A stretch of 46,203 bases of DNA. Origin: a virus. The stretch covers positions 1 through 46,203 of IMG/VR virus record IMGVR_UViG_3300005077_000029, one strand, 5' to 3'. A model generated the notes under the pieces. That model searched no databases. It was given only the letters and a program-made list of their open reading frames with translations, and was not told the DNA's origin. The position numbers were made by a program, and so were the translations under genes. Below, one piece after another: positions 1 to 46,203 of the stretch. How positions within the stretch are numbered: the stretch's first letter is position 1; the number at the start of each line of letters is the position of its first letter.

Positions 1-100
1 TAAAATGTCCGTGTTCGATCCTCAATCCTTCATGCAAGCTCAATTCACCGAAGCCAACGAAACCGAGTTCAAGGCTCCCGCCGAAGGCGAGTACCCCGGC
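1..100. repeat. Contig-end direct repeat, copy 1 (circular-genome signature)
   Basis: Bases 1-100 (taaaatgtccgtgttcgatcc...ggcgagtaccccgg) read identically at 46104-46203; unique length 46103 bp. Confidence 0.95.
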
Positions 101-5680: not shown

Positions 5681-5931
5681 ACGAGAAGATGAAATTCAAC
5701 GTCCGAGACCTGGGGTATTGCTGTATCTTTGCCTGCCTCATGGCAAACCAACGCGAGAAGGAAGTTGTCCTGGCGGCTGAACTCCGCGTCAACCCCAGGA
5801 CAATTCGTGACTGGCGAAAGCGACTCCGGGACGGCCGGATTACCTGCGAAAAAGCTACTCCGTGTCTATGGCCCCGAAGCTTTCCACTGCCTGTTCATAC
5901 AGCTCCTGATGACTTTTCTGAACAGTCGTGA
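5677..5931 (+). CDS. Small HTH protein
   Basis: 84-aa ORF whose ATG overlaps the upstream stop (ATGA at 5677-5680). HTH-like segment VVLAAELRVNPRTIRDWRKRLRDG. The last 77 nt overlap the 3' end of the convergent giant gene. Confidence 0.6.
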   Translation: MNEKMKFNVRDLGYCCIFACLMANQREKEVVLAAELRVNPRTIRDWRKRLRDGRITCEKATPCLWPRSFPLPVHTAPDDFSEQS

Positions 5932-8900
5932 GTTCCTCCGAAGCCTTGACCGAGCGCTTTCTCGCGGCTTCGGATTGTTGCAGCTTTTTAACGGTGATCT
6001 GTAGGTTTTTACTCGGGACCTTCCGGTTAAATTCCGCAATTGCCTTGTTAACATCAGCAACCGCTTCCCTGTCACGAGCGATAACCTTAGCCTGATAGTA
6101 CGCATCTTTCAACACCTTCTGTCGTGTGGTCCAGTATTCCCGGGCTTCGTACTGCTCCGCTTTGATATTCTGCCCAGCGGACACTGAGGCCGGCTGAAAA
6201 CCCATCGCCTTGCCGACGATTTCCCAGGTTTGGATCTCCCGCATCCGGCCCGTCTTGGCGTCATAAGCAATCAGACCGCCCTGCGGCCCCCGAGCATCTC
6301 GCTCCGCCCATTGAGCCGCTTTGAAGATATTGCCCAGGCCTCCGGGCAATCTTGCCATCTGCTTTCCAGCGACATCGCCCATATCCAGTCCGGCCGTTCC
6401 GGCTTTCGAGAGCGCTCCGATGGTGTCCACCAGCCACTGAATATACCCACCACCAACACCGGAGAGTGCTGTTACACCAGCCCCAATTGCCTCTTTTGCT
6501 GTGCCGTGCTCCTCCGCCAGCACATCGGTTCCAGGTACAAGCCGGCCCTGGCCAATCGACCGGCTTAGATCGAACCCACCGAGGTTGAAAGTAGCCCCAC
6601 GCACCACCTTCATCGGGTCATCTACCCCAACTTCCATCAGCACTTCTCGTAGCGCCGTCCGGGCAGATTTCCCATTGTTGAACTTCTTAAACCCAGCATC
6701 GAGAAGGTCCATTACGTTCTCCATTCCCGGGAGCCCTTCGAGTCCAACAGCCAGAAGGTACAACAGTACCAGCTGTGCCGTATAGCTCCTGTACATCGCG
6801 GGGCTGGCCCGTCCCTCCATAGCCTCTTGCCGGCGCAGGCCAATTTCCAGCCCGCCATAGACGTTCCAGCTCGCATTCTGCACAAACGTCATGAAGATTG
6901 TGATAAAGCTCAGCAGCTTCCCACGCATAATCTGCGGGCGGTTCCCTTTGGTGTAGTCACCCTGCAACAGCCCCACCATCCGCACAGCTTCCTCATACCG
7001 CTCCTTCGGAGTAGCCTCTGGCTTGGTCTGCTGCATCACCTTGTAAGCGCCAACAAAAGTTGCCCGGCGGATCAGGAGCTCCGTCCCCCGGAACAGACTC
7101 ATCCCGGAGTCCACAATTCCCTTGAACACCTTCCCTGGCATACTCCCGCTCGCCATCCGGATCAACTGGCCACGAGTCGCCTGCGTCGCGAGGTAATACG
7201 CATAGCTCTGATCGAGGACGTTTTCGCTCTTCGCTTGCTCAAGGGCGAGACGCAACTCCGTCGGCTGGCCGTCCACCATCTCCCAGTTCGGGTCGGTAAG
7301 AGAAGTCAGTGCGGCCTCAGCGGAACCTGTCATAATCCTCCCGACAGTATCCCCCCACTCATGCGCCTGGGTTCTCACCGCCCCGCCAAATGCCTTGGCA
7401 AAGTTGAATCCCCCTTTCAAGTACCCAAGCTCCCGGTTCATCCAGAGCAAGGTGTGGGCGAGGCCCCAGAAGTTCAGCAGCGCAGTCTTCACACTCCCCC
7501 AGAGATACCCGATCGCCACAACCCCTCGGATGGTGGTGAGTTCCTCCTGCGGGTTCATGGCGTAATTCACCGTAGCCTTCATGAATCCGAGAGCCCGCTC
7601 AATCTCCGATTTGTTCTTCAGGAAGCTCTGATTATCCGGGTCATGCTCCGCCTGTGCAATCGCCATCTGGAGAAGCTTACGGTATTCCATCTTCGCGATG
7701 AAGTTTGCGTTCCGTAGGGCAAAGTCTGCATAGGTCTTGATAAAGTCAGTACTTCCCCCCTCCACCTGGAACCGCATGGGGTTGTAGGCTTTGAGCGGGG
7801 TTTTCTCGTATAACGACTGCATGGCTTCTTTGATCTGGGCCAGCTTCGCCTGGTCCTCCGGGTTCGCGGAGTCCAGCCCCAGGATAACCTCAACGTCATC
7901 GAGGAACTCCACCGGCAACCGCAGGAGCAGACCCTCTTCAGCCGTCCGCACAAAGGACTTCACCGACCCGCCAGGATATTTCGCTCGGGCTTTGAGCTCC
8001 AACTCCCGTGCTTCCCGGTCAGAGTCCGTAGCCCCTTCAAACAAGAGTTCCTTTCCTGCCTCATCGCTCGACCACACCTGCACCACGTTCTTCCCGAAGG
8101 CGGTCTGGGGCCAGAACGGATATCCCCGGAGGACGTTAAACGTCTGCACCACCTCCATGATGCTTTGATTCCGCTTGTCAGTCAGCCCCTCGGCCGCGTA
8201 CTTCTTCGTCCTCAGCCCGATCAGCACCAACCGCATTTCATCTTGCTGTCGCTGCAGCGCGTTCTTCGCCTCGATATAAATCCGGAGGAACCGCTTTCCA
8301 GAGACCGAGTCAGGATCAATCCCGATCTTCCTGATCTCCTCAATCAGCCTTGCCGTTGGGCGGTGCTCCCAATGGTTCTGGTCAACCTTGACAATCTCAG
8401 TCCAGTGTTCCCTTCCGCGATACTCCGCCAGGGTGAACTTCTGCATCCGGGCAAGGTTTTCCTTCCCGAACCATTGGAGCTGCCGCACCACCGCATCAGC
8501 GGGTGAATGCATCAAACCTACTTTCCGATAGAAGGCTTGCATCTCCGCTGCGAAGTTGTGCAGCCAAGTCCACTGAGGGTTCATGTGGGCTATTTGTTGT
8601 AGCTGCAACGCATACCACTGTGCATGGTACACTTTGTTTACAGCATCTGCGAGGACGGGTAATTGGAGTTTCTGCTTCAGTACCTCCCACTTCGTTGCCG
8701 TCTCATGCCCCTCCGGGTCAGTCCGGTCGTAGCGCATTTGGGAGCTTACCGTTCCTTCATGCTTGTAGTCCGGATCATACGTCGCACTTCCCACTCCGAA
8801 TGAAACGTACATCTGGTCCTGGAGCTCCGGCATGTCTACAATCACGCCGTCGTGTCCCTCAGCAATGGCCCGGGAGACATAGCCATCGAGCTCCCCAGGG

Positions 8901-11900
8901 AGAACTGTGTGCCCGCGAGACTCCACCCGCAGGGGGTTGGTAATCCTGGCCCAGCCTGGCAGAATCCGTGTGCGCCCAGCCATCTCCGTCATCGGGCCGG
9001 CCCAGAATAACGCGTGCATATAGTTCTGAAAACCGACCTGAATCTTCTGCCGAGAGCTCGGAGCCTTCATGTCCACTGCCGTATTATACATCAGCGTCAG
9101 GGGTTTCCCGTCAGCCTGGACCACCACAGAGCCCTCGAACCAGTTCTTAAACAGCTCCGATTCCACCCCTTTCAGCCGCCACTCTTTCCGGGCCTTGGCT
9201 TGGCCGATCTTCTCCGCAGGGATACGGTATCCTCGAGTAGTCGTGTCCTTCGCAAGAATCCTTACATCGTTATGGTTGTAGGTGACCACGTTCCAACTGT
9301 TCGTAGCCGGGGCAGGCGGCTTGGCGCCGGGGATATACTTCGGCCCCTTTGACCGCGCTGTATTATTCAGGTACACCACACCCGAGATTCCAACGCTGCT
9401 AAGGATTTTCGAGGCAACCTTGGCGGCCGGAATGGCGGGCTTGTTGCGATCTCTAGTTTTATAGGGGATTCCCTTTTCATAGGCTACCCACGCAACCAGC
9501 TCCCAATAAGCATCCTCCATAGTATTGTTAGGTGGTGCTATTCCCAAAGCTTGTTGAATTTCCTGACTGTACTCTTTTGGCAACTTGGGGTCAGCGGTTG
9601 CTCCATAGGATTTTACAAATGCTGCATCCAACCACGCTCTAAGCCGAGCTGCGGCAACAGAATCCTGAACAGGTGGTAGAAAATGCTGCGCAAACAAAAA
9701 CGGCTCTTTTTTAACCTGATGAGTTTCATTCCCAGCTGTAATAGCATCCCCGTATATAACTTGGACAATCAAATCATTTGGATCGGGCAGTCCATGTACA
9801 TACTGTCCAACATCCGCCTCCGTAAACTTAGAGGGGCTATTCTTCAGCAAATACATAGACAAAAATCCATTCTCATGGCGAATAGCAAGTCCGTGCGCTT
9901 TCAGATAATCCTTTGCAGCGGGAGAGTTGATGCTGGCGAGAAGTTCAGGAACCCCAAGCTGCGCCCGAGGCGTAAAGAACTCCCTGTACCTCTCCGGAAG
10001 CTTCGCCAGCGCCCGCTTCACATAGTCCGACTGATCCTCCCACCCCCAGTCCCACCGAGCGAAAGTATCAAACGGCTTCAGAATCTCAAAGTGCCGAACA
10101 TGGGGCTCTCCGTGGACGTAGCGCAGCTGCGCAGCCTTCACGAAGATCGGAGCGAGGAGCTTTACGTCCAGGTCCAGATCCAAGGTTTGTGCGATAGTCT
10201 CCCTTGCCCGGGCCAGGATCTCGGCTTTTTTGCTCAAATGGTCCTTCAAGGCTTCGCGGTCCAGCCGATCCTGCTCCTTCTTGTCAACCCGACGCACTTC
10301 CGGATTCGGCTTGCTACTGTAAACCACATTCGATATCACAGTATTCACGATATCGTCGAGGTCCAGCTCAGTACTAACAGGGTCCCCGCCGTTTTTCAGC
10401 ATCAGCAGCTCGCGCAGATCCTTGGTATTCGCTTCTTTGAGAATCCGCCTTCCGAGATCAGGTGTACCCCACTCATACCTTCTCCCTTGATAGACCATCT
10501 CATGGGGAGCGGACTGGGCCACATCATACCCAGCATAATGCCGGTAGGTCTTTGCCGCCTCACCAGAGTAGTGCCCCCATCCCTGCCAGATCGTCCCCTC
10601 GCCAGTCCCGATCTTCCGCAGATCCACCTTCCCAAGAGGGTTCTCTGGTGAAATAGTCCAGTTCGCCGTCCCGCCAGACCCGACCACCCAAGCGGGCTGC
10701 CAGCCTTTAAGATCAGCACTTTCCGCCTCGAGGATATCGAACTTAAGCCTTTCGCCGATCAGCGGCTCGATCTTGTTCACAAACTCCTCAAACTGCCCAG
10801 TTTTGAGCAGACCGGCCAGTTCCCTATGCTGCTTGCTGTTGGTCTTGACGACTCCGGTTTCACGAAGATTCTTCAGCGCAGCGGTCAGAACATTCCGGCG
10901 GGCCGGGCTCGTCCAGTCCACCTTCGGCTCATCCACTGGAGCTTCAGTGGCCGCCGTCTTTGCCCCCTTAACCAGGGTGTTTTTGCCCGCTTTATCGTTA
11001 AACTCGGCCGCCCGAAGGGCCAGCTCCTCCATCCAATCCTGTGTACTTTTCCCCGCCTCCACCAGCCCCATTGCGGAGAGCTTCCCGTAGAGCTCTTTCA
11101 GTCGGGCAAGCAACGGGCCAAGGAATTCCTGAATCCTCGCTTCCATCGAGCCAAGGAGGGTATCCGTATCAAAGCTCTTCGCGAACGTTGCATCGAGGAC
11201 CGCGCTCTTACCCAGCCGCTCCTCCGCAAACATCGTCTTCGCAACCTGCTCGGCCAGATACTCATCAAAGCTGAGCTGGTAGTTGATCCCCGCTTTCTGA
11301 GCGAAGCGTTTGGCCGAGAATCCGCCGCCGCCGAAGCCGAACCGCTGACGCATCACCGTCTTGTTTTGCAGCTTTGCCGGGGACAGCCAGCGCATGGCGG
11401 CTTCCCGCCCGCCGATCTTGCCGGTCAGGGTGTCATCCCGCAGAGACCTCCAGTCACTCAGAACCTGCTGCGCGGCAGGAGAGAGTTTCTGCGCGAGTGC
11501 CTCATCATAGGTCCCCTGGGTCAGGGCCAGCCGCATGGCGTTGTATTCCTGCGGGGTCAGCTCGGAGAAGAAAAAATCTTCAATCAGGGTGTGGCCGAAC
11601 TCATGGCCGAGGGAGCTGTACGCATTGACGTTTGCATCGCCTGAGTACTTCCCCGATCCCTTTTTGCTCTTGTGACTTCCAGACTGCTTTTGGTTCGTCA
11701 GATGCCGGGGGATAATGTAGTGCACCCCGTTATGCTTAAAGGAGGCCGCCTGCTCCCGCATCGCATCGCCGGTTACCCCAGTGTCCTCCGGGAGGATAAC
11801 ATACACCCCCTTGGGATTGAACTCGCGGGCCAGCTCATAAATATCCTGCACCACCGCTTTCATATAGTGCGACGGGCGGACGTGGGTATCCTCACCAGCC

Positions 11901-13192
11901 TGGATCACCACCGGCCCGGCAGAGAGATCAAAGTCCAGACTCGAAATCTCCCCGAGAGGTTTATTAACCAGCCCGGACATTCCAAGGGCCCGAACAACCC
12001 TCCGCTCTGACCGGGGAACGGCAGTGTTCTGGTCCTCGAAGTTGTGGGGGTTTCGAAGCACCTCATTCGACATCCCCGTGTCAGCAGCCTGCCGCACATC
12101 CAGCCCCTGAACCAGGTCCGAAAGCGTCTTCTCTACTGGCGGGGGAGTGGGTACGTCAATCTTCTCCCCCAGCGTCGCCCCGGAGTTCAGGCTTTCCTCA
12201 ATCGCGTCAATCAGTGCCTGGTTGCTGGCGATCTCCGTCTGCGTGTCAGTGAAGTTCACCTTGGCAGCCGGAGGGGGAGGTGTCTCGCGGGCCGGCTCAG
12301 TGGTTTCCTCCATAGGTGGTGTGGTTCCCCGGGGATTCCGTTCGATATTCCCCGGGGCATTCATACTATGAATTACAGGTGCCATAACCCCCGTTTGCAT
12401 ACCAGCCTGCAGTCCGGTAACGGCAATATCATGCCCCAATTCCGAGATAAACTGATTAAAGGGTTTATCTGGGGTTACGATTGCCTGCTCTGCAAACTTA
12501 TCGACAATGGTGTTCACTTCCTCACTGGCTATCTCACGACCAAGGGTTTTAGCGACCAGAGCCTTCGTCGATTCCTTTCCGAGTTCGGCAAACAGTTTCC
12601 CCATAGGCATCCACTCTGTAACCGCCTCCATAGGGCCGGAAATATTAGCGTATGCTGAGGCCTCCCCGGGATCAGCTCCCTGATCGGAGGCGGCGCCGTA
12701 CGCACCCTCACGAAACTGAAAAAGCCCCTGCTGAGCCAGTGGTAATGGGTTTCTTGTCACCAGTGACGGTGCCATATTTACCATTGAAGGTGCAACCCCC
12801 ATAGCCGCTTCCATTGGGATAGATGGATTAGGAACCTGCTCTTTGATAGACTGTGTCAGGTGCCCAGTTGCCGCCGCCCAATCATGGGTAATTTGCTGCT
12901 GGTCTAAAATCTTTTTCTGTTGGGCGTCGTACTCAGGAGTACCTGGTGTGTACTGAGTTAAGTCGGCCTGCATCGCATCCAGAAGCTCTTTGTGGGCTCC
13001 ATACTTTGCCCCAGCCAAAGAAGCATCAACACTTTCCCCCATAGTAGAGAAGAGACCCTTAACCCCCTTAACTGAAAGCAGGTCTGTTTGAGGGGGCTCT
13101 AGCTTGTCGATGTCCTCAACAATCCATTCGTCAGGTACATCGTCGGCGTATGTATAAACTTTTCCACTGTTACCCCGAACTTGCTTAACCAT
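5855..13192 (-). CDS. Giant (2445 aa) multidomain virion/ejection protein of the polyvalent-protein type
   Basis: Uninterrupted 7.3-kb ORF with AAAGGAA upstream of ATG 13192; it is the last gene of the structural arm. HExxH motif SLGHEFGHTLIED (His530-His534, nt 11588-11605). Block GISGVVYLNN..SWNVVTYNHNDVRIL (nt ~9240-9391). Block SELFKNWFEGSVVVQADGKPLTLMYNT..GHDGVIVDM (from nt 9160 down to ~8750). Hydrophobic helices in the C-terminal third (e.g. LLSFITIFMTFVQNASW at ~6845-6915, YTAQLVLLYLLAVGL). Confidence 0.85.
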   Translation of the reverse strand: MVKQVRGNSGKVYTYADDVPDEWIVEDIDKLEPPQTDLLSVKGVKGLFSTMGESVDASLAGAKYGAHKELLDAMQADLTQYTPGTPEYDAQQKKILDQQQITHDWAAATGHLTQSIKEQVPNPSIPMEAAMGVAPSMVNMAPSLVTRNPLPLAQQGLFQFREGAYGAASDQGADPGEASAYANISGPMEAVTEWMPMGKLFAELGKESTKALVAKTLGREIASEEVNTIVDKFAEQAIVTPDKPFNQFISELGHDIAVTGLQAGMQTGVMAPVIHSMNAPGNIERNPRGTTPPMEETTEPARETPPPPAAKVNFTDTQTEIASNQALIDAIEESLNSGATLGEKIDVPTPPPVEKTLSDLVQGLDVRQAADTGMSNEVLRNPHNFEDQNTAVPRSERRVVRALGMSGLVNKPLGEISSLDFDLSAGPVVIQAGEDTHVRPSHYMKAVVQDIYELAREFNPKGVYVILPEDTGVTGDAMREQAASFKHNGVHYIIPRHLTNQKQSGSHKSKKGSGKYSGDANVNAYSSLGHEFGHTLIEDFFFSELTPQEYNAMRLALTQGTYDEALAQKLSPAAQQVLSDWRSLRDDTLTGKIGGREAAMRWLSPAKLQNKTVMRQRFGFGGGGFSAKRFAQKAGINYQLSFDEYLAEQVAKTMFAEERLGKSAVLDATFAKSFDTDTLLGSMEARIQEFLGPLLARLKELYGKLSAMGLVEAGKSTQDWMEELALRAAEFNDKAGKNTLVKGAKTAATEAPVDEPKVDWTSPARRNVLTAALKNLRETGVVKTNSKQHRELAGLLKTGQFEEFVNKIEPLIGERLKFDILEAESADLKGWQPAWVVGSGGTANWTISPENPLGKVDLRKIGTGEGTIWQGWGHYSGEAAKTYRHYAGYDVAQSAPHEMVYQGRRYEWGTPDLGRRILKEANTKDLRELLMLKNGGDPVSTELDLDDIVNTVISNVVYSSKPNPEVRRVDKKEQDRLDREALKDHLSKKAEILARARETIAQTLDLDLDVKLLAPIFVKAAQLRYVHGEPHVRHFEILKPFDTFARWDWGWEDQSDYVKRALAKLPERYREFFTPRAQLGVPELLASINSPAAKDYLKAHGLAIRHENGFLSMYLLKNSPSKFTEADVGQYVHGLPDPNDLIVQVIYGDAITAGNETHQVKKEPFLFAQHFLPPVQDSVAAARLRAWLDAAFVKSYGATADPKLPKEYSQEIQQALGIAPPNNTMEDAYWELVAWVAYEKGIPYKTRDRNKPAIPAAKVASKILSSVGISGVVYLNNTARSKGPKYIPGAKPPAPATNSWNVVTYNHNDVRILAKDTTTRGYRIPAEKIGQAKARKEWRLKGVESELFKNWFEGSVVVQADGKPLTLMYNTAVDMKAPSSRQKIQVGFQNYMHALFWAGPMTEMAGRTRILPGWARITNPLRVESRGHTVLPGELDGYVSRAIAEGHDGVIVDMPELQDQMYVSFGVGSATYDPDYKHEGTVSSQMRYDRTDPEGHETATKWEVLKQKLQLPVLADAVNKVYHAQWYALQLQQIAHMNPQWTWLHNFAAEMQAFYRKVGLMHSPADAVVRQLQWFGKENLARMQKFTLAEYRGREHWTEIVKVDQNHWEHRPTARLIEEIRKIGIDPDSVSGKRFLRIYIEAKNALQRQQDEMRLVLIGLRTKKYAAEGLTDKRNQSIMEVVQTFNVLRGYPFWPQTAFGKNVVQVWSSDEAGKELLFEGATDSDREARELELKARAKYPGGSVKSFVRTAEEGLLLRLPVEFLDDVEVILGLDSANPEDQAKLAQIKEAMQSLYEKTPLKAYNPMRFQVEGGSTDFIKTYADFALRNANFIAKMEYRKLLQMAIAQAEHDPDNQSFLKNKSEIERALGFMKATVNYAMNPQEELTTIRGVVAIGYLWGSVKTALLNFWGLAHTLLWMNRELGYLKGGFNFAKAFGGAVRTQAHEWGDTVGRIMTGSAEAALTSLTDPNWEMVDGQPTELRLALEQAKSENVLDQSYAYYLATQATRGQLIRMASGSMPGKVFKGIVDSGMSLFRGTELLIRRATFVGAYKVMQQTKPEATPKERYEEAVRMVGLLQGDYTKGNRPQIMRGKLLSFITIFMTFVQNASWNVYGGLEIGLRRQEAMEGRASPAMYRSYTAQLVLLYLLAVGLEGLPGMENVMDLLDAGFKKFNNGKSARTALREVLMEVGVDDPMKVVRGATFNLGGFDLSRSIGQGRLVPGTDVLAEEHGTAKEAIGAGVTALSGVGGGYIQWLVDTIGALSKAGTAGLDMGDVAGKQMARLPGGLGNIFKAAQWAERDARGPQGGLIAYDAKTGRMREIQTWEIVGKAMGFQPASVSAGQNIKAEQYEAREYWTTRQKVLKDAYYQAKVIARDREAVADVNKAIAEFNRKVPSKNLQITVKKLQQSEAARKRSVKASEELTTVQKSHQELYEQAVESFGAIDTE
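12327..12357. repeat. 31-bp CCCCGGGG dyad element, intragenic copy
   Basis: CCCCGGGGattc-cgttcga-TATTCCCCGGGG; same 12+7+12 geometry as the intergenic copies. It lies in the Pro/Thr-rich linker (..NAPGNIERNPRGTTPP..) of the giant gene. Confidence 0.7.
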
Positions 13193-28159: not shown

Positions 28160-28192
28160 GCCCCGGGGAATACTACACATATTCCCCGGGGC
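28160..28192 (-). terminator. Perfect 13-bp-stem hairpin (31-bp dyad element) after the capsid gene; terminator or mRNA stabiliser
   Basis: GCCCCGGGGAATA-ctacaca-TATTCCCCGGGGC. On the minus-strand transcript it is followed by CTTTTC, then AAGGAG and ATG 28141. Confidence 0.7.
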
Positions 28193-28195
28193 GCA

Positions 28196-28226
28196 TATTA
28201 CACCAGTTCCGTATTACACCAGTTCC
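28196..28226. repeat. Tandem 15-nt direct repeat spanning the capsid stop codon
   Basis: tattacaccagttcc occurs at 28196-28210 and 28212-28226 (period 16); the second copy encodes ..ELV-stop of the capsid gene. Confidence 0.9.
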
Positions 28227-33927: not shown

Positions 33928-34389
33928 TCACGGCCTCCAGATATGCACACCAAAGCCCCGGCCCGCCCACTCTGCTGGACTTGCCACAAGTTCGACCGGC
34001 TCGGGGCAGACAATAAGCGGATCATACCACTTCACAATCTCGAGTATTGCAACCGGTTTGCCAAAAAGATACTCGAGCAGGGGGGCGTAAACGAGCCGAA
34101 GCTGCTCCCAGGCCCCGGGAGTATGTTGGTATTTAACCTCGACCAGAAGAACTCTTTCTCCAAGGTCCACATACCCATCGGGCTGACACCACCGAGGCCC
34201 GGCGTCGTCGGAGAATTGAATCCACTGATTAGCACACCACTGTGGAAATATTCCGCGGAGGTAACCATGGACGAGTCGTTCATACTTCACACCCTGAAGT
34301 TTTCGCCCCCTGGGCCGGGATTGTTTGAGCTTCGGGGGAGGGGAGGGACTGAGCCTCACCCACTTCAAGTTCCGGACTGGGACTCGCAT
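33928..34389 (-). CDS. PD-(D/E)xK-fold nuclease
   Basis: 153-aa ORF with motif QPDGYVDLGERVLLVEVKYQ (D..E-x-K). ATG 34389 (GGGAG upstream) overlaps the TerS-like gene by 110 nt; a GTG near 34290 is an alternative start. Confidence 0.6.
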   Translation of the reverse strand: MRVPVRNLKWVRLSPSPPPKLKQSRPRGRKLQGVKYERLVHGYLRGIFPQWCANQWIQFSDDAGPRWCQPDGYVDLGERVLLVEVKYQHTPGAWEQLRLVYAPLLEYLFGKPVAILEIVKWYDPLIVCPEPVELVASPAEWAGRGFGVHIWRP

Positions 34390-34918
34390 TTACAGCTCCC
34401 GCAATGACGGTGCTCCGCGCCTCGGCCAGTTCCGACGCGGAGACGCTAACAAAAACTTGCTGCACCGGCCCCGGCCCGGGGGAACGGGCAGACGTCGGGG
34501 CATACCCGAGCCGATGGAGAGCCTTATCGAAGACATCAATTGCCACCTCCGGGGACTCCGTCTCCGACACAATCTGGCTGACCTTTTCAATCGCCAGGTC
34601 CGCAAGCCCACGAAGCTTTGCCGGAATGTCCTGAGCCACGTGGAGAAAGACCTCCCGGTGCTTGGCCTGGAGTTCTTGCTGGAAAAGGTCCGAGTGGATC
34701 AAGCGGGACAGCCAGGGCTGGGAATACCCGAAGGAGTCTGCGCATTCTCGGAGCGACTTCTCTGGGTTAGCAATGAGCCAGTTCATGACTGCCTCATGCG
34801 TGTGGGAAAGGCGGGCGATGGCCTGGTCCGGCGGGCGGGCAAGGCGCTCAGCGATTTCGGGGGGAAGGGCCGGGTTCTCCATGGGCCGGAGTATATGCCG
34901 CCGGGCGGACCGGCGCAA
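34280..34918 (-). CDS. HTH protein, putative terminase small subunit
   Basis: First gene of the late arm. The start is TTG 34918 or ATG 34882. HTH-like SLRECADSFGYSQPWLSRLI. Function is inferred from its position next to TerL. Confidence 0.5.
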   Translation of the reverse strand: MRRSARRHILRPMENPALPPEIAERLARPPDQAIARLSHTHEAVMNWLIANPEKSLRECADSFGYSQPWLSRLIHSDLFQQELQAKHREVFLHVAQDIPAKLRGLADLAIEKVSQIVSETESPEVAIDVFDKALHRLGYAPTSARSPGPGPVQQVFVSVSASELAEARSTVIAGAVNASPSPELEVGEAQSLPSPEAQTIPAQGAKTSGCEV

Positions 34919-34942
34919 GGGGAGCTTTGGGGCGTGTTATTT

Positions 34943-34950
34943 CCCCGGGG
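34943..34950. promoter_or_regulatory. Single CCCCGGGG core in the late-arm leader
   Basis: tttCCCCGGGGattttc, 25-60 nt upstream of the candidate starts of the first late gene. Confidence 0.5.
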
Positions 34951-35024
34951 ATTTTCACAATTGCTTGCAGCGCCGCTGGTGGCTTTCCCCCCTACATACC
35001 GCACGATCAGGGGGGGTGGGTGGG

Positions 35025-35053
35025 TTGCATTCAGGTGGACGACATGCGATAAT
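35025..35053 (+). promoter_or_regulatory. Sigma70-type promoter P1 (early arm)
   Basis: TTGCAT (35025-35030), 17-nt spacer, GATAAT (35048-35053). Confidence 0.65.
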
Positions 35054-35057
35054 ACCA
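35049..35057 (-). promoter_or_regulatory. Possible extended -10 promoter for the late arm
   Basis: The minus strand reads TGgTATTAT (reverse complement of 35049-35057) and overlaps the -10 of P1; no good -35 is present. Confidence 0.3.
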
Positions 35058-35060
35058 CTC

Positions 35061-35083
35061 AATGCCATGTGACAGGTGGCATT
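35061..35083. promoter_or_regulatory. 7-bp inverted repeat (operator-like) just downstream of P1
   Basis: AATGCCA-n9-TGGCATT. Confidence 0.4.
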
Positions 35084-35140
35084 ATGGGGTGTTACCCTAA
35101 CCGCGCCGGGACGGTCTACCCGGATTGAATGGAGAGTGCT

Positions 35141-35617
35141 ATGAAAAAGCAAAGTATCGACTGGGTGAAAGACGACACGATTGAAATCAAGTACGGCAAC
35201 GGCTTGGTATTCACAGGCGATTGTCTTGATCTACCCGAGGATATCTACCAGCCCTGCGCCGCAGCCCGGCACGGGATTGCCCAGAAGCTGGGCGATGCGA
35301 AATCCGGTGGAACGGCTGCGGAGAAACATGCCGAGGTGGTGGAGATTTGGGCAAGCCTTCTGGGTAATGCCTGGAACCGTCGCGCCACCGGAGCAGGGGT
35401 TGAAGCCTTGATCGAACGGGCTTATGCCATCCTGGCCGGGAAGGCCGGGCAACCCGAGGCCCAGGCCGAGGTATGGTATGAGCAGTACCTGGAAATGGAC
35501 GAGGCGAAGCGGGAAATGGTCCGGGCGAAACCCTTCATGAAGGCCGCGATTGAAGCGGCCAGGGCCGAACGGAAGCTCGGTGGGACGACAACCGAAGAGT
35601 TCAATCCGAACGCGTAA
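35141..35617 (+). CDS. Early protein, paralog A (ends ..EEFNPNA)
   Basis: ATG 35141 is preceded by GGAGAG (35131-35136). It shares LPE[DE]I, HG[IL]xQKLGDA, W..L.G.W and a C-terminal [EQ]EF[ND]PNA with 36876..37418. A canonical terminator follows. Confidence 0.75.
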   Translation: MKKQSIDWVKDDTIEIKYGNGLVFTGDCLDLPEDIYQPCAAARHGIAQKLGDAKSGGTAAEKHAEVVEIWASLLGNAWNRRATGAGVEALIERAYAILAGKAGQPEAQAEVWYEQYLEMDEAKREMVRAKPFMKAAIEAARAERKLGGTTTEEFNPNA

Positions 35618-35634
35618 CCCCAGCGCAAACCCCC

Positions 35635-35658
35635 AGCCCGGCTTCGGCCGGGTTTTTT
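35635..35658 (+). terminator. Intrinsic terminator
   Basis: gcccggc-ttcg-gccgggt stem-loop (TTCG tetraloop) followed by T6 at 35653-35658. Confidence 0.85.
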
Positions 35659-35673
35659 CTTTCCACCCCGGGC

Positions 35674-35721
35674 CTGCAGTAGGGCGCTCGAGCCGTCCCG
35701 CCGCTGCAGTAGGGCGCTCGA
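35674..35721. repeat. Two 18-bp perfect direct repeats, 30-bp period
   Basis: ctgcagtagggcgctcga at 35674-35691 and 35704-35721. Confidence 0.9.
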
Positions 35722-35729
35722 CCGAGAAG

Positions 35730-36198
35730 CAAATTTCCCGGGCCGGTTCCCCGGTGTTCCCCCCGATTTCCCTCTAGGCTCCCCCTAGTTCAGTTCCCCC
35801 GGTGTACCCCCGGAGTAGGTGGTAGTAGGTGGAAAGACGCCGTAGGTGCCTAGTTCGGGTTACCCCCCTCTCTCTAGATCCCCGGGGATATTTACCCGGG
35901 GAATCCCCACCCTAATCCCCGGGGACTTTCAGCCTCACCCTCTCAGCTCCCTAGTTCCCCGGGGATCTACCGTTCTTTCTTTTAAATATTTTTTTTAGTA
36001 AAAAGACATACGGATCGGAATATCGGGAGACTGGGCCACCCACACAAATTTCCCCGGGGATAGAAAGAGAGGGGGTTTCCCCTACCTACGTATCTACGGC
36101 ACCTTACCACCTACTACCACCTACTACCGCAAACGCCGGGGGGACACGGGGGGCACCGAGGGCTCCCACACCGGGGGAACACCGGCCCGGGAGATTTG
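35730..36198. promoter_or_regulatory. Large modular imperfect palindrome with iterons, CCCCGGGG cores and AT-rich centre (candidate origin or regulatory hub)
   Basis: The left arm (35730-35893) and the reverse complement of the right arm (36046-36198) share ordered blocks: caaatNtcccgggccggt, ttccccc-ggtgt, GGTAGTAGGT tandem 10-mers (35811-35832 vs 36107-36128), gccgtag, ccccctctct, atCCCCGGGGa. CCCCGGGG cores start at 35880, 35917, 35957 and 36052. AT-rich tract at 35974-36010. Confidence 0.6.
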
Positions 36199-36207
36199 AA
36201 ACTGGAC

Positions 36208-36236
36208 TTGCAATACTCACATCGGGGGGTTATAAT
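36208..36236 (+). promoter_or_regulatory. Sigma70-type promoter P2
   Basis: TTGCAA (36208-36213), 17-nt spacer, TATAAT (36231-36236). Confidence 0.7.
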
Positions 36237-36294
36237 GCAACGGAAATGTCCACCCGTAGCACCACCCGCAGTTAACACCTTAAAGGAGAATGAA

Positions 36295-36789
36295 ATGCCG
36301 AGATCGAATAATATTGCAGCTTACCCGGAGCAGCTTTTCGCAGTTGCACACGCAGTGAGGGATACGAGAAGGCCAGTGGAGATTGAGCTCTCAACGGAGA
36401 AGGAGGTGGAATATCTACGAATGCAGTGGTACGGGTTTCTCAACGCTTATACAAAGCAGAGTGGGGATGAAAGCATCCGGGCAGTAATGTGTGCGCGGCT
36501 GGCACCGGCTCGGACTGGAGAGTCCTGGAGGCTACGGTTCTCGCACCGGGACACACCGCCGACGATGCAGGCGCTCGGACGTGCTCTGGCGGCCGCGCTC
36601 CAGTCCACTCCTCAGGACACCCGTCCACCCGAGGGTCCACCCGCCAGTCCACCCGCAGCTCAACCCCCAGTCTACCACCACCCCAGGCTGCCCGAGTCCC
36701 CACTTGCCCGCGCAGAGGCGTCGGAGGAATTCGAGGCGGCGATCGATGCGTGGCTGGGCGCGGACGGAGCGAATGAAAAAAGTTCTTGA
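36295..36789 (+). CDS. Hypothetical 164-aa protein with Pro-rich C-terminal half
   Basis: ATG 36295 with AAGGAG 7 nt upstream; the upstream TTG 36196 in the ORF track lies inside the promoter and palindrome. Confidence 0.65.
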   Translation: MPRSNNIAAYPEQLFAVAHAVRDTRRPVEIELSTEKEVEYLRMQWYGFLNAYTKQSGDESIRAVMCARLAPARTGESWRLRFSHRDTPPTMQALGRALAAALQSTPQDTRPPEGPPASPPAAQPPVYHHPRLPESPLARAEASEEFEAAIDAWLGADGANEKSS

Positions 36790-36814
36790 CAGCTCGGGCA
36801 CCCCGGAATACAAT
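36786..36814 (+). promoter_or_regulatory. Sigma70-type promoter P3
   Basis: TTGACA (36786-36791), 17-nt spacer ending caCCCCGGAA, TACAAT (36809-36814). Confidence 0.7.
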
Positions 36815-36875
36815 AATAATTCCGGGCCAAGCACACCCGGAGTGAAACTACCTCAACCCTTGAAAAGGAATCATC

Positions 36876-37418
36876 ATGGCTTTTATCGAAAAAGAATACG
36901 ACTTGGATGCGAAAAGCTCCACCATCAGTGTTGGCGGTGACGCGCTGGAGTTCGACACGAACGAACTGCCGGAGGAAATCCGCGTTACCCTGATGCTTCA
37001 CGGTCTGAACCAGAAGCTGGGCGACGCCCTGGCCGGTCTGAAGGCCGCGATGGCCAAGGCCACGGGCAAGGAGACCAAGGACATCTCCGACGACGAGATC
37101 AAGCCCAAGGCAGTGGAAACCCTCCGCGATCTGTGGGGCCAGCTGGTCAACGGCGACTGGCGCGCAGCCCGTGGCGAAGGGGAAGCGAAGCCCCGCGTCA
37201 CCGAGGTTGCCCTGGCCATTTCCCGCCTGCAGAACATCTCCGTGGAGCAGGCCACTTCCCTGGTCAACTCGGTGGACAAGGAGAAGCTGGCGAAGTGGCG
37301 CGCTCACCCGCAGATGAAGCTGGCCATCAGCCAGATCCGCGCGGAGAAGGCTCAGGCCAAACTGGCCGCCGAAATGGCCAAGGCCGGCTCGGTGCAAGAG
37401 TTCGACCCCAACGCCTAA
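36876..37418 (+). CDS. Early protein, paralog B (ends ..QEFDPNA)
   Basis: 180-aa ORF with AAAGGA upstream; shares motifs with 35141..35617; a canonical terminator follows. Confidence 0.75.
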   Translation: MAFIEKEYDLDAKSSTISVGGDALEFDTNELPEEIRVTLMLHGLNQKLGDALAGLKAAMAKATGKETKDISDDEIKPKAVETLRDLWGQLVNGDWRAARGEGEAKPRVTEVALAISRLQNISVEQATSLVNSVDKEKLAKWRAHPQMKLAISQIRAEKAQAKLAAEMAKAGSVQEFDPNA

Positions 37419-37440
37419 GCCCAGGCCACGGGTACAGCAA

Positions 37441-37469
37441 AGCCTGGGAGAACAACCCCAGGCTTTTTT
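37441..37469 (+). terminator. Intrinsic terminator
   Basis: agcctggg-agaacaac-cccaggct followed by TTTTTT. Confidence 0.85.
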
Positions 37470-37512
37470 ATTGGCCGTTGACTAACACCGGGTTAGGTAA
37501 TGGAGGTAAGAA

Positions 37513-37884
37513 ATGCGACTTGTAATTATTGAAAGCCCGTTCGCTGGTGACGTAGAGGCCAACACGGAATACGCAAGGGCGGCGGTGCGCGATTCTCTTA
37601 TGCGCGGAGAGGCGCCGATAGCCAGCCACCTACTTTACACGCAGCCCGGCGTATTGCGGGACGACGTTCCAGAGGAAAGGCAACACGGAATAGACGCGGG
37701 GCTTGCGTGGCTTGCCGTGGCAACAGTGACCGCTGTTTATACGGATCGAGGTATCAGCCGAGGGATGCAGTACGGAATCAAGGCGGCGCAGGATGCTGGG
37801 GTTCTGGTGGAGTACAGAACGCTAATGCCCAACGCTGACGTAACCGGCCTGGCGCCGAAAGGAGAAGAACATGGGACACAATGA
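37513..37884 (+). CDS. Conserved phage protein, possibly with a nucleoside 2-deoxyribosyltransferase-like (Rossmann) fold
   Basis: 123-aa ORF with GGAGG upstream; pattern VIIESPFAGD..N..YA..GEAPIASHLLY..ER..GI..AVYTDRGISRGM. The fold suggestion is from memory and is weak. Confidence 0.5.
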   Translation: MRLVIIESPFAGDVEANTEYARAAVRDSLMRGEAPIASHLLYTQPGVLRDDVPEERQHGIDAGLAWLAVATVTAVYTDRGISRGMQYGIKAAQDAGVLVEYRTLMPNADVTGLAPKGEEHGTQ

Positions 37885-38230
37885 TGCAGTTTGCGACCTG
37901 ATGGTAGAGAATGGCAACCTGAAGCGGCTGCTGACTGAATGCCAAGCCCGCGAGGCGAAGTTGCGGGATTTCATAGATGTATGTATAGAGCTTGATGACT
38001 ACCTTCCAGTAACTGTGCTCGCCGCACTAGATGAAGTGCGTGATATACAGTCCGACAACTCCGCCCTGCGCGAAGCCCTCAAACAAGCCAAACGCGAAGC
38101 GTTACTGGAAGCTGCGGACTGGTGCAAGATTAGCGCGGCTGAACAAGACGCCCTGGGCGAAGACGAGTTTGCAACAGGCCTTCGCATTGCAGGCGACCAT
38201 TTTCTCCACATAGCAGAGGAGCTGAAATGA
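37871..38230 (+). CDS. Hypothetical coiled-coil protein
   Basis: 119-aa ORF with AGGAGAAG upstream; 14-nt overlap with the previous gene. Confidence 0.6.
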   Translation: MGHNDAVCDLMVENGNLKRLLTECQAREAKLRDFIDVCIELDDYLPVTVLAALDEVRDIQSDNSALREALKQAKREALLEAADWCKISAAEQDALGEDEFATGLRIAGDHFLHIAEELK

Positions 38231-38676
38231 TGACAGAACGCGAGCGCGCGATTGCGAGACAGGCTTACCAAACTGGGTATGGGCGTGGTCACAACGACAC
38301 CGTAGAAGGACGTTACAACAGCGTTTGTGAACACGAAAACGATTGCGCCGATGAATGGATTGAAGAATGGCAAGACGCCTTTAAACAGGCCGCGAGTCAG
38401 CAAGAGCCGGCGGCTTGGATATTTGATAGCAACTATGAGTGCCTTCTACCATACGAAGTGGAAAAAGAAACTTTGGTTAACAACCCAGGACTTTATACAC
38501 CCCTCTACCTCCACCCAGCGCCAATCCCTCTCGGCTGGAAACTAGTGCCGGAAGAGCCGACGGAATCAATGCAGCTGGCTTATACAAAATGTAAAACAGA
38601 AGCCGGGTTTCGTTGGGCAAGGCATCAATGGAAAGCCATGCTTGCCGCCGCACCTGAATACAAGGAGCCAAAATGA
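38227..38676 (+). CDS. Hypothetical protein
   Basis: 149-aa ORF; ATGA overlap with the previous gene. Confidence 0.6.
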   Translation: MMTERERAIARQAYQTGYGRGHNDTVEGRYNSVCEHENDCADEWIEEWQDAFKQAASQQEPAAWIFDSNYECLLPYEVEKETLVNNPGLYTPLYLHPAPIPLGWKLVPEEPTESMQLAYTKCKTEAGFRWARHQWKAMLAAAPEYKEPK

Positions 38677-38975
38677 CCACCTCCCCCTCCCAACTCCCAA
38701 CAAAACTCGAGATCATCCTGGCCCTTTGCACCCCCTCAATCACCCGACGATCTTTCATCAAAATCTACGGGAAGACTGAAACCCTGATCAACTACGCAGT
38801 CTCCCGTGGGTTGGTAGCTCGCAGCAAGACCCCCGAGGGGACTGTGTACACCAGAACCTCGGTGCCATACATCCCCGCCTCGGAAGCCCGCCGCAGGGCC
38901 ATCAACCGCAACCGAGACCCCAAAACGGGCCGGATAGCCCGCCAAAAAATGATGGCAGACCATAAGGTCTGCTAA
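38673..38975 (+). CDS. Hypothetical basic protein, possible winged-helix DNA binder
   Basis: 100-aa ORF with an ATGA overlap; basic C-terminus (RRRAINRNRDPKTGRIARQK). Confidence 0.5.
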   Translation: MTTSPSQLPTKLEIILALCTPSITRRSFIKIYGKTETLINYAVSRGLVARSKTPEGTVYTRTSVPYIPASEARRRAINRNRDPKTGRIARQKMMADHKVC

Positions 38976-38989
38976 CGACAGAAAGGATC

Positions 38990-39142
38990 ATGACTATGTG
39001 GTACGAAGGAATATTGAAAGGGATGGTAATGTTCTTCATCATTTGTATAGTGCTTGCATTTGCATTGGGCGCTGGCCTAATGTGGGCTGCGCCGAAAGTA
39101 TGGGAGTGGGTGAAACCTATTATACATGCCGCGACGGCATGA
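38990..39142 (+). CDS. 50-aa single-pass membrane peptide (below the ORF-track cutoff)
   Basis: My own translation is MTMWYEGILKGMVMFFIICIVLAFALGAGLMWAAPKVWEWVKPIIHAATA. GAAAGGA lies upstream. It competes with the less protein-like ORF 38998..39192. Confidence 0.4.
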   Translation: MTMWYEGILKGMVMFFIICIVLAFALGAGLMWAAPKVWEWVKPIIHAATA

Positions 39143-39188
39143 CACCGAAGCCCGCCAAAAAATATTTGCGGAGTGAAGCAAAAAGGGG

Positions 39189-39217
39189 TTGACAAACTGG
39201 TCCCCGGGGAATACCAT
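39189..39217 (+). promoter_or_regulatory. Sigma70-type promoter P4 overlapping a dyad element
   Basis: TTGACA (39189-39194), 17-nt spacer ending tCCCCGGGGAA, TACCAT (39212-39217). Confidence 0.6.
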
Positions 39218-39232
39218 ATATATTCCCCGGGG
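39202..39232. repeat. 31-bp CCCCGGGG dyad element, perfect copy
   Basis: CCCCGGGGAATA-ccatata-TATTCCCCGGGG. Confidence 0.9.
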
Positions 39233-39283
39233 CATTCCGCCCTCACTGTGCCGGGTCAGTCCATACCCGATTAGGAGCAAAGC

Positions 39284-39934
39284 ATGACCGAGAAACTTCT
39301 CAGCATCGAAGACCTTGATGCGTTTTTTGCTACAGCCCCGGCTAAGCCGAAAACAAAAACCAAAGCCGTACAACCCCCAAAACCCGAGCCGAAATACTGG
39401 ATTCCCACGGAGGTAGTTTTGTGGGAATCTCAGTGGGAATGTGCCTGCGGTGCTTGCGGGCCAGCAACTCCGGAGTTGTTCGTTCGTGAGGTCTGCGGAC
39501 GGCAATCCCGGCTCCGGGGGATTGGGAACCCCAAGCAATACGGCCTCCTCCCCCGAGTTGTTGAGCAAGCCCAGCCTTCCCAGGTCCAGGTCTGCCCAAC
39601 TTGTTTCGACGGGCAGACCGAGGGGGTGAAGGCCCAGCTAATCCTCCCTTTTCCGGAGGACTTGCGGGAGTTCGTGAGTAAAATCAACGAGGCCAAGCAC
39701 ACCGCCAGGGACATCCTAGCGGCCCTGGAAGAACTCCGACGAGACCCGCCAGCACCGATACCCACCCAGGTTATCAGAACCCGGGAGACCCCCTTGCCGC
39801 CTGACTGGGCGTTTATCCCAGGCGACGTGGAGTTCACCCGAGGGTCGAGTGTGGTTCACTACATCAGTTCAGCCACCGGAGAAACCGGACCGGCCCTTCC
39901 GCATTGCTACAAGGAGATAAACAATGAGTTTTGA
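39284..39934 (+). CDS. Hypothetical Cys-rich (zinc-ribbon-like) protein
   Basis: 216-aa ORF with AGGAG upstream; WECACGACG ... VCPTCFDG. Confidence 0.65.
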   Translation: MTEKLLSIEDLDAFFATAPAKPKTKTKAVQPPKPEPKYWIPTEVVLWESQWECACGACGPATPELFVREVCGRQSRLRGIGNPKQYGLLPRVVEQAQPSQVQVCPTCFDGQTEGVKAQLILPFPEDLREFVSKINEAKHTARDILAALEELRRDPPAPIPTQVIRTRETPLPPDWAFIPGDVEFTRGSSVVHYISSATGETGPALPHCYKEINNEF

Positions 39935-40253
39935 TGTCACCACGACTATCCTCGTACGGGCCTGGCAGGACAGCGGACACTGCTCCCGCTGCCCTTACCG
40001 GATTTACGAGCCGAACTTCGGCTGGGAGTGTGCAGCCGTCAAGGTAAGCCACTGCCCTGGCGCGCCAGAACAGGCAGCCGGGCTTATCCCCGAGAAATTC
40101 CCACCAGAGGAGCAGGAGTTCCTCTCCACCATGAACCACGAAGATGACCTCTTCCTTCCAGCCTACGCAAAAACGTTTGGCTATTCCCTCCCCACCGCAG
40201 AACGCCAGGCAGGTGCCTGGAAGCTGCTCAAATCTTTGAAGGAGCAATCATGA
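39924..40253 (+). CDS. Hypothetical protein
   Basis: 109-aa ORF with GGAG upstream; 11-nt overlap with the previous gene. Confidence 0.6.
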   Translation: MSFDVTTTILVRAWQDSGHCSRCPYRIYEPNFGWECAAVKVSHCPGAPEQAAGLIPEKFPPEEQEFLSTMNHEDDLFLPAYAKTFGYSLPTAERQAGAWKLLKSLKEQS

Positions 40254-43136: not shown

Positions 43137-43355
43137 ATGCCCCACAAACTCCCAACTGACAAAGTTCAACGCGAGGTGTACTTGCCCGTCCGGTACATCG
43201 CTATTGTCGATACGCTTCTCTTCGACCCGATGAAAGGGGGCCCCCGAAAAGGCTCTTTCTCGAACTACGTCACGGCACTCATCCACGACGACCTGATCAA
43301 AAAAGGTTTGTTGTCTGGGAAAAAAGATCTTGACAGTGACCAAACACCCGGATAA
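43137..43355 (+). CDS. Ribbon-helix-helix (Arc/CopG-like) DNA-binding protein
   Basis: 72-aa ORF; beta-strand REVYLPVRYI, then two helices (IAIVDTLL.., GSFSNYVTALIHDDLIKKG). Confidence 0.6.
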   Translation: MPHKLPTDKVQREVYLPVRYIAIVDTLLFDPMKGGPRKGSFSNYVTALIHDDLIKKGLLSGKKDLDSDQTPG

Positions 43356-44746: not shown

Positions 44747-44777
44747 CCCCGGGGAATACGCAACCGCATCCCCGGGG
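44747..44777. repeat. 31-bp CCCCGGGG dyad element, degenerate right arm
   Basis: CCCCGGGGAATA-cgcaacc-gcatCCCCGGGG followed by cttt; lies between the nuclease stop and the next RBS. Confidence 0.75.
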
Positions 44778-46103: not shown

Positions 46104-46203
46104 TTAAAATGTCCGTGTTCGATCCTCAATCCTTCATGCAAGCTCAATTCACCGAAGCCAACGAAACCGAGTTCAAGGCTCCCGCCGAAGGCGAGTACCC
46201 CGG
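46104..46203. repeat. Contig-end direct repeat, copy 2
   Basis: Identical to bases 1-100. Confidence 0.95.

Follow-up and report, generated by a model that had tools for sequence, protein, structure and literature searches.

The DNA analysed here (IMG/VR record IMGVR_UViG_3300005077_000029, 46,203 nt, hereafter the window) carries a family of 31-bp dyad elements that is strongly enriched, fixed in geometry and conserved in sequence and position among related phages, with copies lying next to promoters and an origin-like region. The element is real, conserved and functional. From these features we infer protein binding, the kind of protein that binds and what its binding would do: with moderate confidence, and judging from sequence comparison, we read the family as an operator-like set of sites for a putative twofold-symmetric DNA-binding regulator, most likely encoded by the phage itself, with two of the copies doubling as leaky terminators.

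The first 99 nt of the window (1-99) are identical to its last 99 nt (46105-46203), indicating a circular assembly and thus a complete phage genome of ~46.1 kb. The phage is a podophage with SU10-like structural genes. Among the window genes, Pfam assigned SU10-type portal, capsid (SU10_MCP) and adaptor proteins and a large terminase, together with a family A DNA polymerase fused with uracil-DNA glycosylase, a UvrD-like helicase, a PD-(D/E)XK nuclease, an AAA_24 protein, a DUF3987 protein and a ParB_N-methyltransferase fusion (ParB_N-N6_N4, 852-2138). No integrase or repressor was detected, and the phage is apparently lytic. Plus-strand genes run from 35129 through the window end on to 5931 and minus-strand late genes from 34882 down to 5855, with a divergent control region at 34883-36294. 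Scans of the window found sigma70-like promoters at 36208, 36786, 39189 and 43330 and canonical T-run terminators at 35635 and 37439; the canonical terminators of this genome have 6-7 T. Rfam and tRNA scans gave no matches. The temporal programme appears to run entirely on host sigma70-type promoters, and no phage RNA polymerase or sigma factor was detectable in the window by Pfam, by a search of the 2445-aa protein for polymerase motifs or by a relaxed scan of two early paralogues.

That 2445-aa protein (5855-13192, minus strand) contains Pro-rich stretches and, near residue 530, an HEFGH (HExxH) motif, and its homologue in L105, a contig from the sample that yielded L059, carries Pfam LPD23. 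The window protein itself gave no Pfam match, no significant PDB match and none of four candidate polymerase motifs scanned by regular expression (DxDGD among them), and was rejected as a virion RNA polymerase on those grounds. Hairpin promoters of the N4 type, which go with a giant virion RNA polymerase and 5-7-bp hairpins, were also rejected, the stems here being 12-13 bp. CCCGGG occurs 43 times in the window, which encodes the ParB_N-N6_N4 methyltransferase fusion; several relatives (L003, L004, L006-L010, L014 and L060) have zero copies in 4-15 kb at 50-60% GC, which suggests that they avoid a SmaI/XmaI-type restriction site.

An earlier note on this DNA, made by eye, had listed 13 copies of CCCCGGGG and guessed that about two would be expected. 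An exhaustive both-strand search returned the same 13 at the same positions, and 100 dinucleotide-preserving shuffles gave a mean of 2.25 (sd 1.34, maximum 6), placing the enrichment far above chance. The spaced pattern CCCCGGGG-N15-CCCCGGGG, with up to two mismatches allowed, matched five times in the window against 0.05 expected. Four of these matches are the dyads already described, whose common geometry and quoted arm and loop sequences all proved exact; the fifth, imperfect dyad (35894-35924) reads ACCCGGGGAATC-cccaccc-TAATCCCCGGGG. The five cores listed as single are positioned as described and are all 10-bp palindromes (TCCCCGGGGA), but one of them, at 35917, turns out to be the right arm of the fifth dyad, which has the dyad geometry. 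Eleven of the 13 cores are non-coding, the number given before, after correction of two gene starts: that of the gene following the capsid gene is ATG 28142, which is kept in relatives (alignment A1), and not 28180, and that of the first late gene is ATG 34882. Both coding cores belong to one element, as the two arms of the dyad at 12327-12357.

Each dyad is built of two inverted 13-bp half-sites (CCCCGGRRADTAY) flanking a 5-bp spacer. A weight matrix for the half-site, which also picks up isolated half-sites, matched 12 times in the window, and 8 and 9 times in the relatives L108 (ena:ERZ27258486:k141_1817454, 48,339 bp) and L109 (logan:ERR14794633_31314, 44,876 bp), against ~1 in shuffles. 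The copies and the control features around them are collected in Table 1; dyads are numbered iii to v after the syntenic places described below.

Table 1 Copies of the element and neighbouring control features in the window
Feature	Position	Strand	Description
Coding dyad	12327-12357		In frame within the 2445-aa virion-protein gene; encodes APGNIERNPRGT, adjoining a Pro-rich stretch
Dyad v	28161-28191	-	CCCCGGGGAATA-N7-TATTCCCCGGGG, perfect arms; 22 nt past capsid-gene stop, 18 nt before ATG 28142
Late-operon promoter	34890-34918	-	TTGCGC-17-TATACT; 7 nt from ATG 34882; kept in L108 and L109
Single half-site ATTTCCCCGGGGAT	34939-34952 (core 34943)		Core starts 24 bp upstream of late-promoter -35; centre ~-63
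Quasi-palindrome, ~470 bp	35730-36198		Putative origin/control region; AT-rich centre ~35972-36006; four single cores and one dyad
Single core TCCCCGGGGA	35875-35889 (core 35880)		14-nt perfect inverted repeat with 35956-35969 (inverted repeat I7)
Fifth, imperfect dyad	35894-35924	+	Same 23-nt geometry; in origin-like control region
Single core	35956-35969		Palindromic; immediately left of AT-rich tract
Single core ATTTCCCCGGGGAT	36048-36061		Mirror partner of 35880 in quasi-palindrome, right of AT-rich tract; repeat families D1 and I1
Sigma70-like promoter, replication-gene (middle) operon	39189-39217	+	TTGACA-17-TACCAT, 10/12 consensus positions
Dyad iii	39202-39232	+	Perfect arms; inside middle-operon promoter
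Dyad iv	44747-44777	+	9 nt past PD-(D/E)XK nuclease stop; 19 nt before ATG 44797

Dyad iii covers the spacer, the -10 and the start region of the middle promoter, with the -10 inside the dyad loop. Dyad v is followed directly after its stem, on the sense strand, by CTTTTC, has a predicted RNA fold of -29.3 kcal/mol (z -5.4) and sits where all relatives compared have their post-capsid terminator hairpins; dyad iv is followed by CTTTCAT and then by a Shine-Dalgarno sequence, AGGAGC. Just upstream of dyad v, a 16-nt tandem duplication (GGAACTGGTGTAATA and one further base, minus strand, 28195-28226) spans the capsid stop codon and is absent in L061. The late promoter is one of a conserved sigma70 type, TTGnnn-16/17-TATAMT (window 34882-34918 minus strand, L108 6341-6379, L109 1903-1940). 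It was also among the promoters that the scan gave for L109. It ends only 6-7 nt before the ATG, so the mRNA from which the first late gene is translated may be leaderless.

The origin-like region (35617-36295) combines iteron-like direct repeats (two copies of GCAGTAGGGCGCTCGA, 35667-35691 and 35697-35721), C-rich repeats and an AT-rich core, and the quasi-palindrome within it has a predicted single-stranded DNA fold of -131.7 kcal/mol (z -13.2). This layout is kept in L108 and L109, in which dyads lie in synteny by the same AT-rich tract (L108 7614 and 7737, L109 3318; alignment A7).

Among the ~100 related loci first fetched, a dispersed and recurrent hairpin family occurred in the window only. 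L107, L108 and L109 were recovered after that, through the nuclease and a 216-aa protein, and proved decisive; the relatives compared at the post-capsid position were recovered through the terminase. The earlier note had proposed looking for intergenic copies in synteny in related phages, and such copies were found in L108, L109, L107 and L061. These share an ungapped 31-nt consensus, CCCCGGRRADTAY-N5-RTAHTYCCCGG, and 15 copies from five phages aligned without indels (alignment A6), with seven invariant columns (C3, C4, G5, T11, T23, C27 and G28) and seven near-invariant ones. The copies occupy five syntenic places: upstream of the late promoter (site i), at the AT-rich core of the origin-like region (site ii), at the middle-operon promoter (site iii), after the nuclease gene (site iv) and after the capsid gene (site v).

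At site i, the window half-site has as its aligned counterparts a half-site at 6441 in L108 and, in L109, the right arm of a full dyad (1974; alignment A4), the element lying at about -63, -98 and -83 from the late promoter across the window and relatives. At site iii, L108 and L109 have a dyad upstream of the middle promoter, past the terminator of a conserved 180-aa early gene (alignment A3); the promoter is homologous in all three genomes, and the dyad lies 49-73 nt upstream of the -35 in the two relatives, whereas it overlaps the promoter in the window. The site iv copy is present in L107, L108 and L109 (alignment A2), decayed in L104 and absent in L105. At site v, L061 has CCCCGGGGATTA-cgaaccg-TATTTCCCGGGG; in L057, L005 and L002, only CCGG-N19-CCGG remains, its inner changes being compensatory, together with a U-tract. 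In all relatives recovered through the terminase, a GC hairpin lies 10-40 nt past the capsid gene, followed in many (L057, L065, L002, L011, L015 and L017) by a textbook U-tract, and the closest of them align with dyad v through the Shine-Dalgarno sequence and the next gene start (alignment A1). The hairpin being in the same slot throughout, the 28161 copy fills an ancestral terminator slot.

Protein identity across the phages with syntenic copies is only 47-75%, and four positions that stay syntenic at such divergence argue that function has been retained and speak against mobility. Each genome has a variant of its own, common to its copies (CCCCGGGGAATA, CCCGGGRAKTAC and CCGGAAAGTATA), as expected if the sites co-evolve with one binder; this likeness could also reflect gene conversion or duplication, which counts against reading it as the mark of an operator. 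L108 (17683-17711, 7915-7938) and L109 (2800-2813, 3519-3543) have further GC-clamped palindromes with other spacing, for example TCCCGGGATT-ggtg-AATCCCGGGA and GGGGAATATTCCCC, which may be variant sites of the same system.

The pattern of conservation bears on whether the element is recognised as double-stranded sequence or acts through RNA structure. At site iv, 51/78 arm positions in the relatives (65%) match the window copy, compared with 35-59% (about 46%) at 4-fold synonymous sites of the flanking genes and 2/15 in the loops; the arms are thus more conserved than synonymous sites and the loops are not. In the 15-copy family, 80.5% of cells are paired; shuffling the 3' letters between copies gives 78.5%, and 44 of 500 shuffles do as well as the real alignment. 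The covariation score is 0.148, against 0.122 in shuffles. With pairing this near the shuffled level, the dyad symmetry belongs to the consensus and not to copy-specific covariation. Mismatches on the sense strand are A.C 18 times and G.T 8 times and thus show no bias towards wobble pairing. Hairpin formation is impossible for single cores and half-sites, and yet the window and L108 both keep one upstream of the late promoter. Finally, strong T-run terminators precede dyad iii by 16-20 nt in L108 and L109, and every site ii copy is downstream of the strong terminator of a stand-alone gene, so that the DNA at these copies is probably poorly transcribed. Together, the evidence from rate, covariation, mismatches, half-sites and transcription context favours a symmetric protein that would recognise double-stranded sequence.

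Each of these results also weighs against a rival explanation, in which the copies are RNA hairpins only, acting between cistrons as leaky terminators or attenuators or at 3' ends as mRNA stabilisers or insulators, with no sequence-specific protein. We consider this unlikely, if well short of negligible. Stems of 9-13 bp with stable RNA folds (-20 to -29 kcal/mol) speak for it, as does the position of the 28161 and 44747 copies directly after stop codons. So do the GC hairpins that all relatives have in the post-capsid slot, with their frequent U-tracts, and the compensatory stem changes in the post-capsid hairpins of L057, L005 and L002. At sites iv and v, 3-6 T follow within 8 nt of the stem (4-6 except in L108) and the next ATG is a constant 18-21 nt away; on the antisense strand, T-runs also occur at some copies of sites i and iii. 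Against it, arm sequence is conserved beyond what pairing demands where synonymous sites are near saturation, and the 15-copy family shows little copy-specific covariation. The folding of the 31-mers, recommended as a check by the earlier note, gave stable structures except for the 35894 dyad, which folds no better than shuffles (z +0.4). On the sense strand, the first 8 nt past the stem contain 0-4 T in the window copies, fewer than the at least 5 U within ~8 nt found in the orthologues of L057, L065, L002 and L061; U-tracts are weak or absent at 39202, 12327 and 35894, and none of the window dyads came up as terminator-like in the scan that found the terminators at 35635 and 37439.

Of the three roles proposed earlier for the element, the operator set is the best supported, by syntenic conservation of the arms across diverged phages, by lone half-sites and by the copy inside a sigma70-like promoter. 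The role as an RNA hairpin or terminator is supported for the post-capsid and post-nuclease copies alone, the former being orthologous in position to canonical terminators. Given the T counts, the fixed distance to the ATG and the stable folds at sites iv and v, we keep a dual role for 28161 and 44747, which probably double as leaky or weak intrinsic terminators. RNase III sites, suggested alongside, are unlikely because the stems are only 12-13 bp, compared with the ~20 bp or more of double-stranded RNA, often interrupted, that such sites take.

The third role, a small REP-like repeat, found no support in databases. Neither the exact 24-base dyad pattern nor the degenerate family pattern had a match in IMG/VR, and megablast of 34000-40000 against GenBank phages found nothing. 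The pattern CCCCGGGGAAT-N9-ATTCCCCGGGG hit three unrelated lone hairpins in 185,579 species genomes and one in metagenome contigs, all of them (L018-L021) longer terminator hairpins unrelated to the window; the element thus belongs neither to host REPs nor to widespread repeats. With so few and unrelated matches, and no transposase domain found by Pfam in the scanned genes, a host repeat of the REP/BIME or MITE-like kind was rejected. One of the four hits, L020 209-239 (a Competibacterales MAG, JBHJHK010000442.1), is a lone hairpin whose longer stem contains an exact CCCCGGGGAATA-N7-TATTCCCCGGGG. Nothing else in L020 was found to resemble the window, and the match is probably chance and no pointer to the host. 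In IMG/VR, the N-terminal part of the giant protein and the 216-aa protein had no relatives, and the relatives of the helicase and DNA polymerase (at most 59% identity) were too distant and had no element. An exact-sequence look-up of the capsid protein returned no record, and a literature search for CCCCGGGG in phage found nothing relevant.

A mobile or recombinogenic cassette is a further rival, and an improbable one to our mind: a composite of promoter and stem-loop, resembling the promoter-early stem-loops (PeSLs) of other phages, would have spread by duplication or gene conversion and would mediate gene shuffling. The 39202 copy is such a composite and borders a five-gene block (37513-39142, including a DUF7768 protein) that has no counterpart in L108 and L109 and is inserted ahead of dyad iii, past the terminator of the 180-aa gene; ~39093-39135 may be an ancestral dyad that has decayed. 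The loop of the 44747 copy, CGCAACC, is closer to the post-capsid loop of L061, CGAACCG, than the window's own post-capsid loop is, and some other loops are likewise closer to copies at other loci or in other phages than to their own orthologue. The in-frame copy within a coding region and the homogenised copies of each genome point the same way. The four stably syntenic positions do not, and no target-site duplications were found at the copies, of which each genome has only ~5 full ones; no RAYT-like domain was found by Pfam in the scanned genes either, nor copies in host-type genomes. The loop resemblances and the shift of dyad iii fit operator turnover and are also compatible with cassette behaviour of the PeSL kind.

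Less probable still is that the copies are promoters for a phage sigma factor, as in phiEco32, where gp36 reads AATGTA centred at -11.5; the inner half-site would then be a -10-like element for the gene immediately downstream. In its favour, the structural module is of the SU10 kind, five of the six positions of AATGTA (PMC12276001) are shared by AAAGTA, the L109 inner half-site, copies iv and v keep a constant 18-21 nt upstream of a start codon, and two paralogous all-helical early proteins (158 and 180 aa) have no assigned function. The window half-site, GGAATA, fits the phiEco32 consensus poorly, however, and twofold symmetry is not a property of promoters. Moreover, no sigma domain was found by Pfam even at E <= 10, the late and middle operons already have conserved sigma70-type promoters, and the control-region copies are not upstream of genes.

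The operator reading is backed by a single motif conserved across copies and genomes, whose sites overlap or adjoin promoters. It has its own difficulties. The distances between element and promoter are not constant; the coding copy at 12327-12357 is at a place where an operator has no obvious role; and the post-capsid copy is, by alignment, clearly orthologous in position to plain terminator hairpins.

As to the putative binder, no recognisable helix-turn-helix or ribbon-helix-helix regulator was found in the window apart from a sub-cut-off HTH_23 match on 5677-5931 (E 2e-4), and the candidate small early proteins gave no Pfam, PHROG, PDB or fold match. The protein at 43137-43355, named before as a ribbon-helix-helix candidate, has no support from Pfam, PHROG or PDB and no detectable homologue in L109, which bears the element. 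It was set aside as binder along with the products of 5677-5931 (84 aa) and 35129-35617, none of which matched a PDB sequence. Two paralogous early proteins, encoded at 35141-35617 (158 aa) and 36876-37418 (180 aa), are ~30% identical, flank the origin-like region and share the motif HGxxQKLGD and a C-terminal F(N/D)PNA. Both genes are monocistronic, each having a promoter and a T-run terminator to itself, and the product of 36876-37418 is 65-72% identical to its L108 and L109 homologues. The pair had no family, PDB or fold match, and a relaxed Pfam scan of the family (E <= 10) showed no sigma and no convincing helix-turn-helix domain. The 158-aa protein, product of the stand-alone gene, also occurs in L058, yet neither the sequenced control region of that phage (L058) nor its post-nuclease site (on L105) has the dyads; the presence of the protein thus does not track the motif. 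Foldseek found no match at E < 0.1 to the AlphaFold model of either the 180-aa protein (pLDDT 61) or the 216-aa protein (pLDDT 65). The 216-aa protein (39284-39934) is the product of the first middle-operon gene and has a CxC...CxxC conserved across 11 homologues, a possible Zn site.

In the operator reading, a symmetric regulator would bind the two inverted half-sites of each 31-bp element, and a single GC core, itself a small palindrome, would be a weaker site. Binding would take place beside the late promoter, inside (window) or upstream of (relatives) the middle promoter, at the AT-rich origin-like core and at two gene junctions, where it may occlude or assist promoters and block read-through, coordinating the temporal programme and possibly replication. 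As a GC-clamped palindrome, the site also yields a transcript that folds into a hairpin, which, with a short U-rich tail at the post-capsid and post-nuclease junctions, would serve as a leaky intrinsic terminator.

A bolder version, which we offer tentatively and think more doubtful than not by a good way, has one palindrome read twice: as DNA by a phage regulator linking the origin-like region with the late and middle promoters, and as RNA by way of a terminator hairpin at gene junctions, with protein occupancy setting both promoter activity and read-through. The early paralogues (35141-35617 and 36876-37418) might run this 'operator-terminator' logic, which, if true, would be new for lytic podophages. 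If the operator reading itself is right, the late and middle promoters, the origin-like region and two operon junctions, as principal control points of an uncultivated phage clade, all bear one short motif, which offers a handle for finding the regulator and dissecting the temporal programme and would show how a terminator slot can be reused for a protein-recognised palindrome. The element challenges no general principle.

Sequence-specific motifs scattered between genes are familiar from the conserved inverted repeats of phiC31, the C1 operators of P1 and the DNA uptake sequence pairs of Neisseria, the last of which double as terminator stems when inverted. The sequences and hosts of these systems are unrelated to the window element, and we know of no set of their kind from SU10-like podophages. 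Compared with the Rho-independent terminator common after phage capsid genes, the 28161 copy sits in exactly that slot, and relatives have a GC hairpin, U-tract and Shine-Dalgarno sequence there; it differs in having only CTTTTC after its stem, in a 31-mer that recurs at promoters and the origin-like region, and in conserving its sequence and not pairing alone.

The closest known systems are PeSLs and the stoperators of mycobacteriophages. PeSLs of T4-type phages are repeated, small intergenic composites of terminator and promoter (PMC4122927, PMC2839356), and the 39202 copy is likewise a composite bordering a variable gene block. PeSLs, however, are numerous and flank hyper-variable ORFs, whereas most copies here are syntenically stable, only one overlaps a promoter and copies cluster at the origin-like region. 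In Cluster A mycobacteriophages (L5, Bxb1 and TipsytheTRex-type), repressor binding to stoperators represses promoters and stops elongation (PMC9283540). Stoperators are asymmetric sites of 13-14 bp, orientation-dependent and bound by a monomer, with ~20-30 per genome in temperate phages; the candidate sites here are neither asymmetric nor oriented but 31-bp palindromes able to form hairpins, ~5 dyads plus singles, in an apparently lytic podophage. What the window element has in common with stoperators (PMC9283540) is one short motif in many copies genome-wide, placed largely in short intergenic gaps within operons and at promoters.
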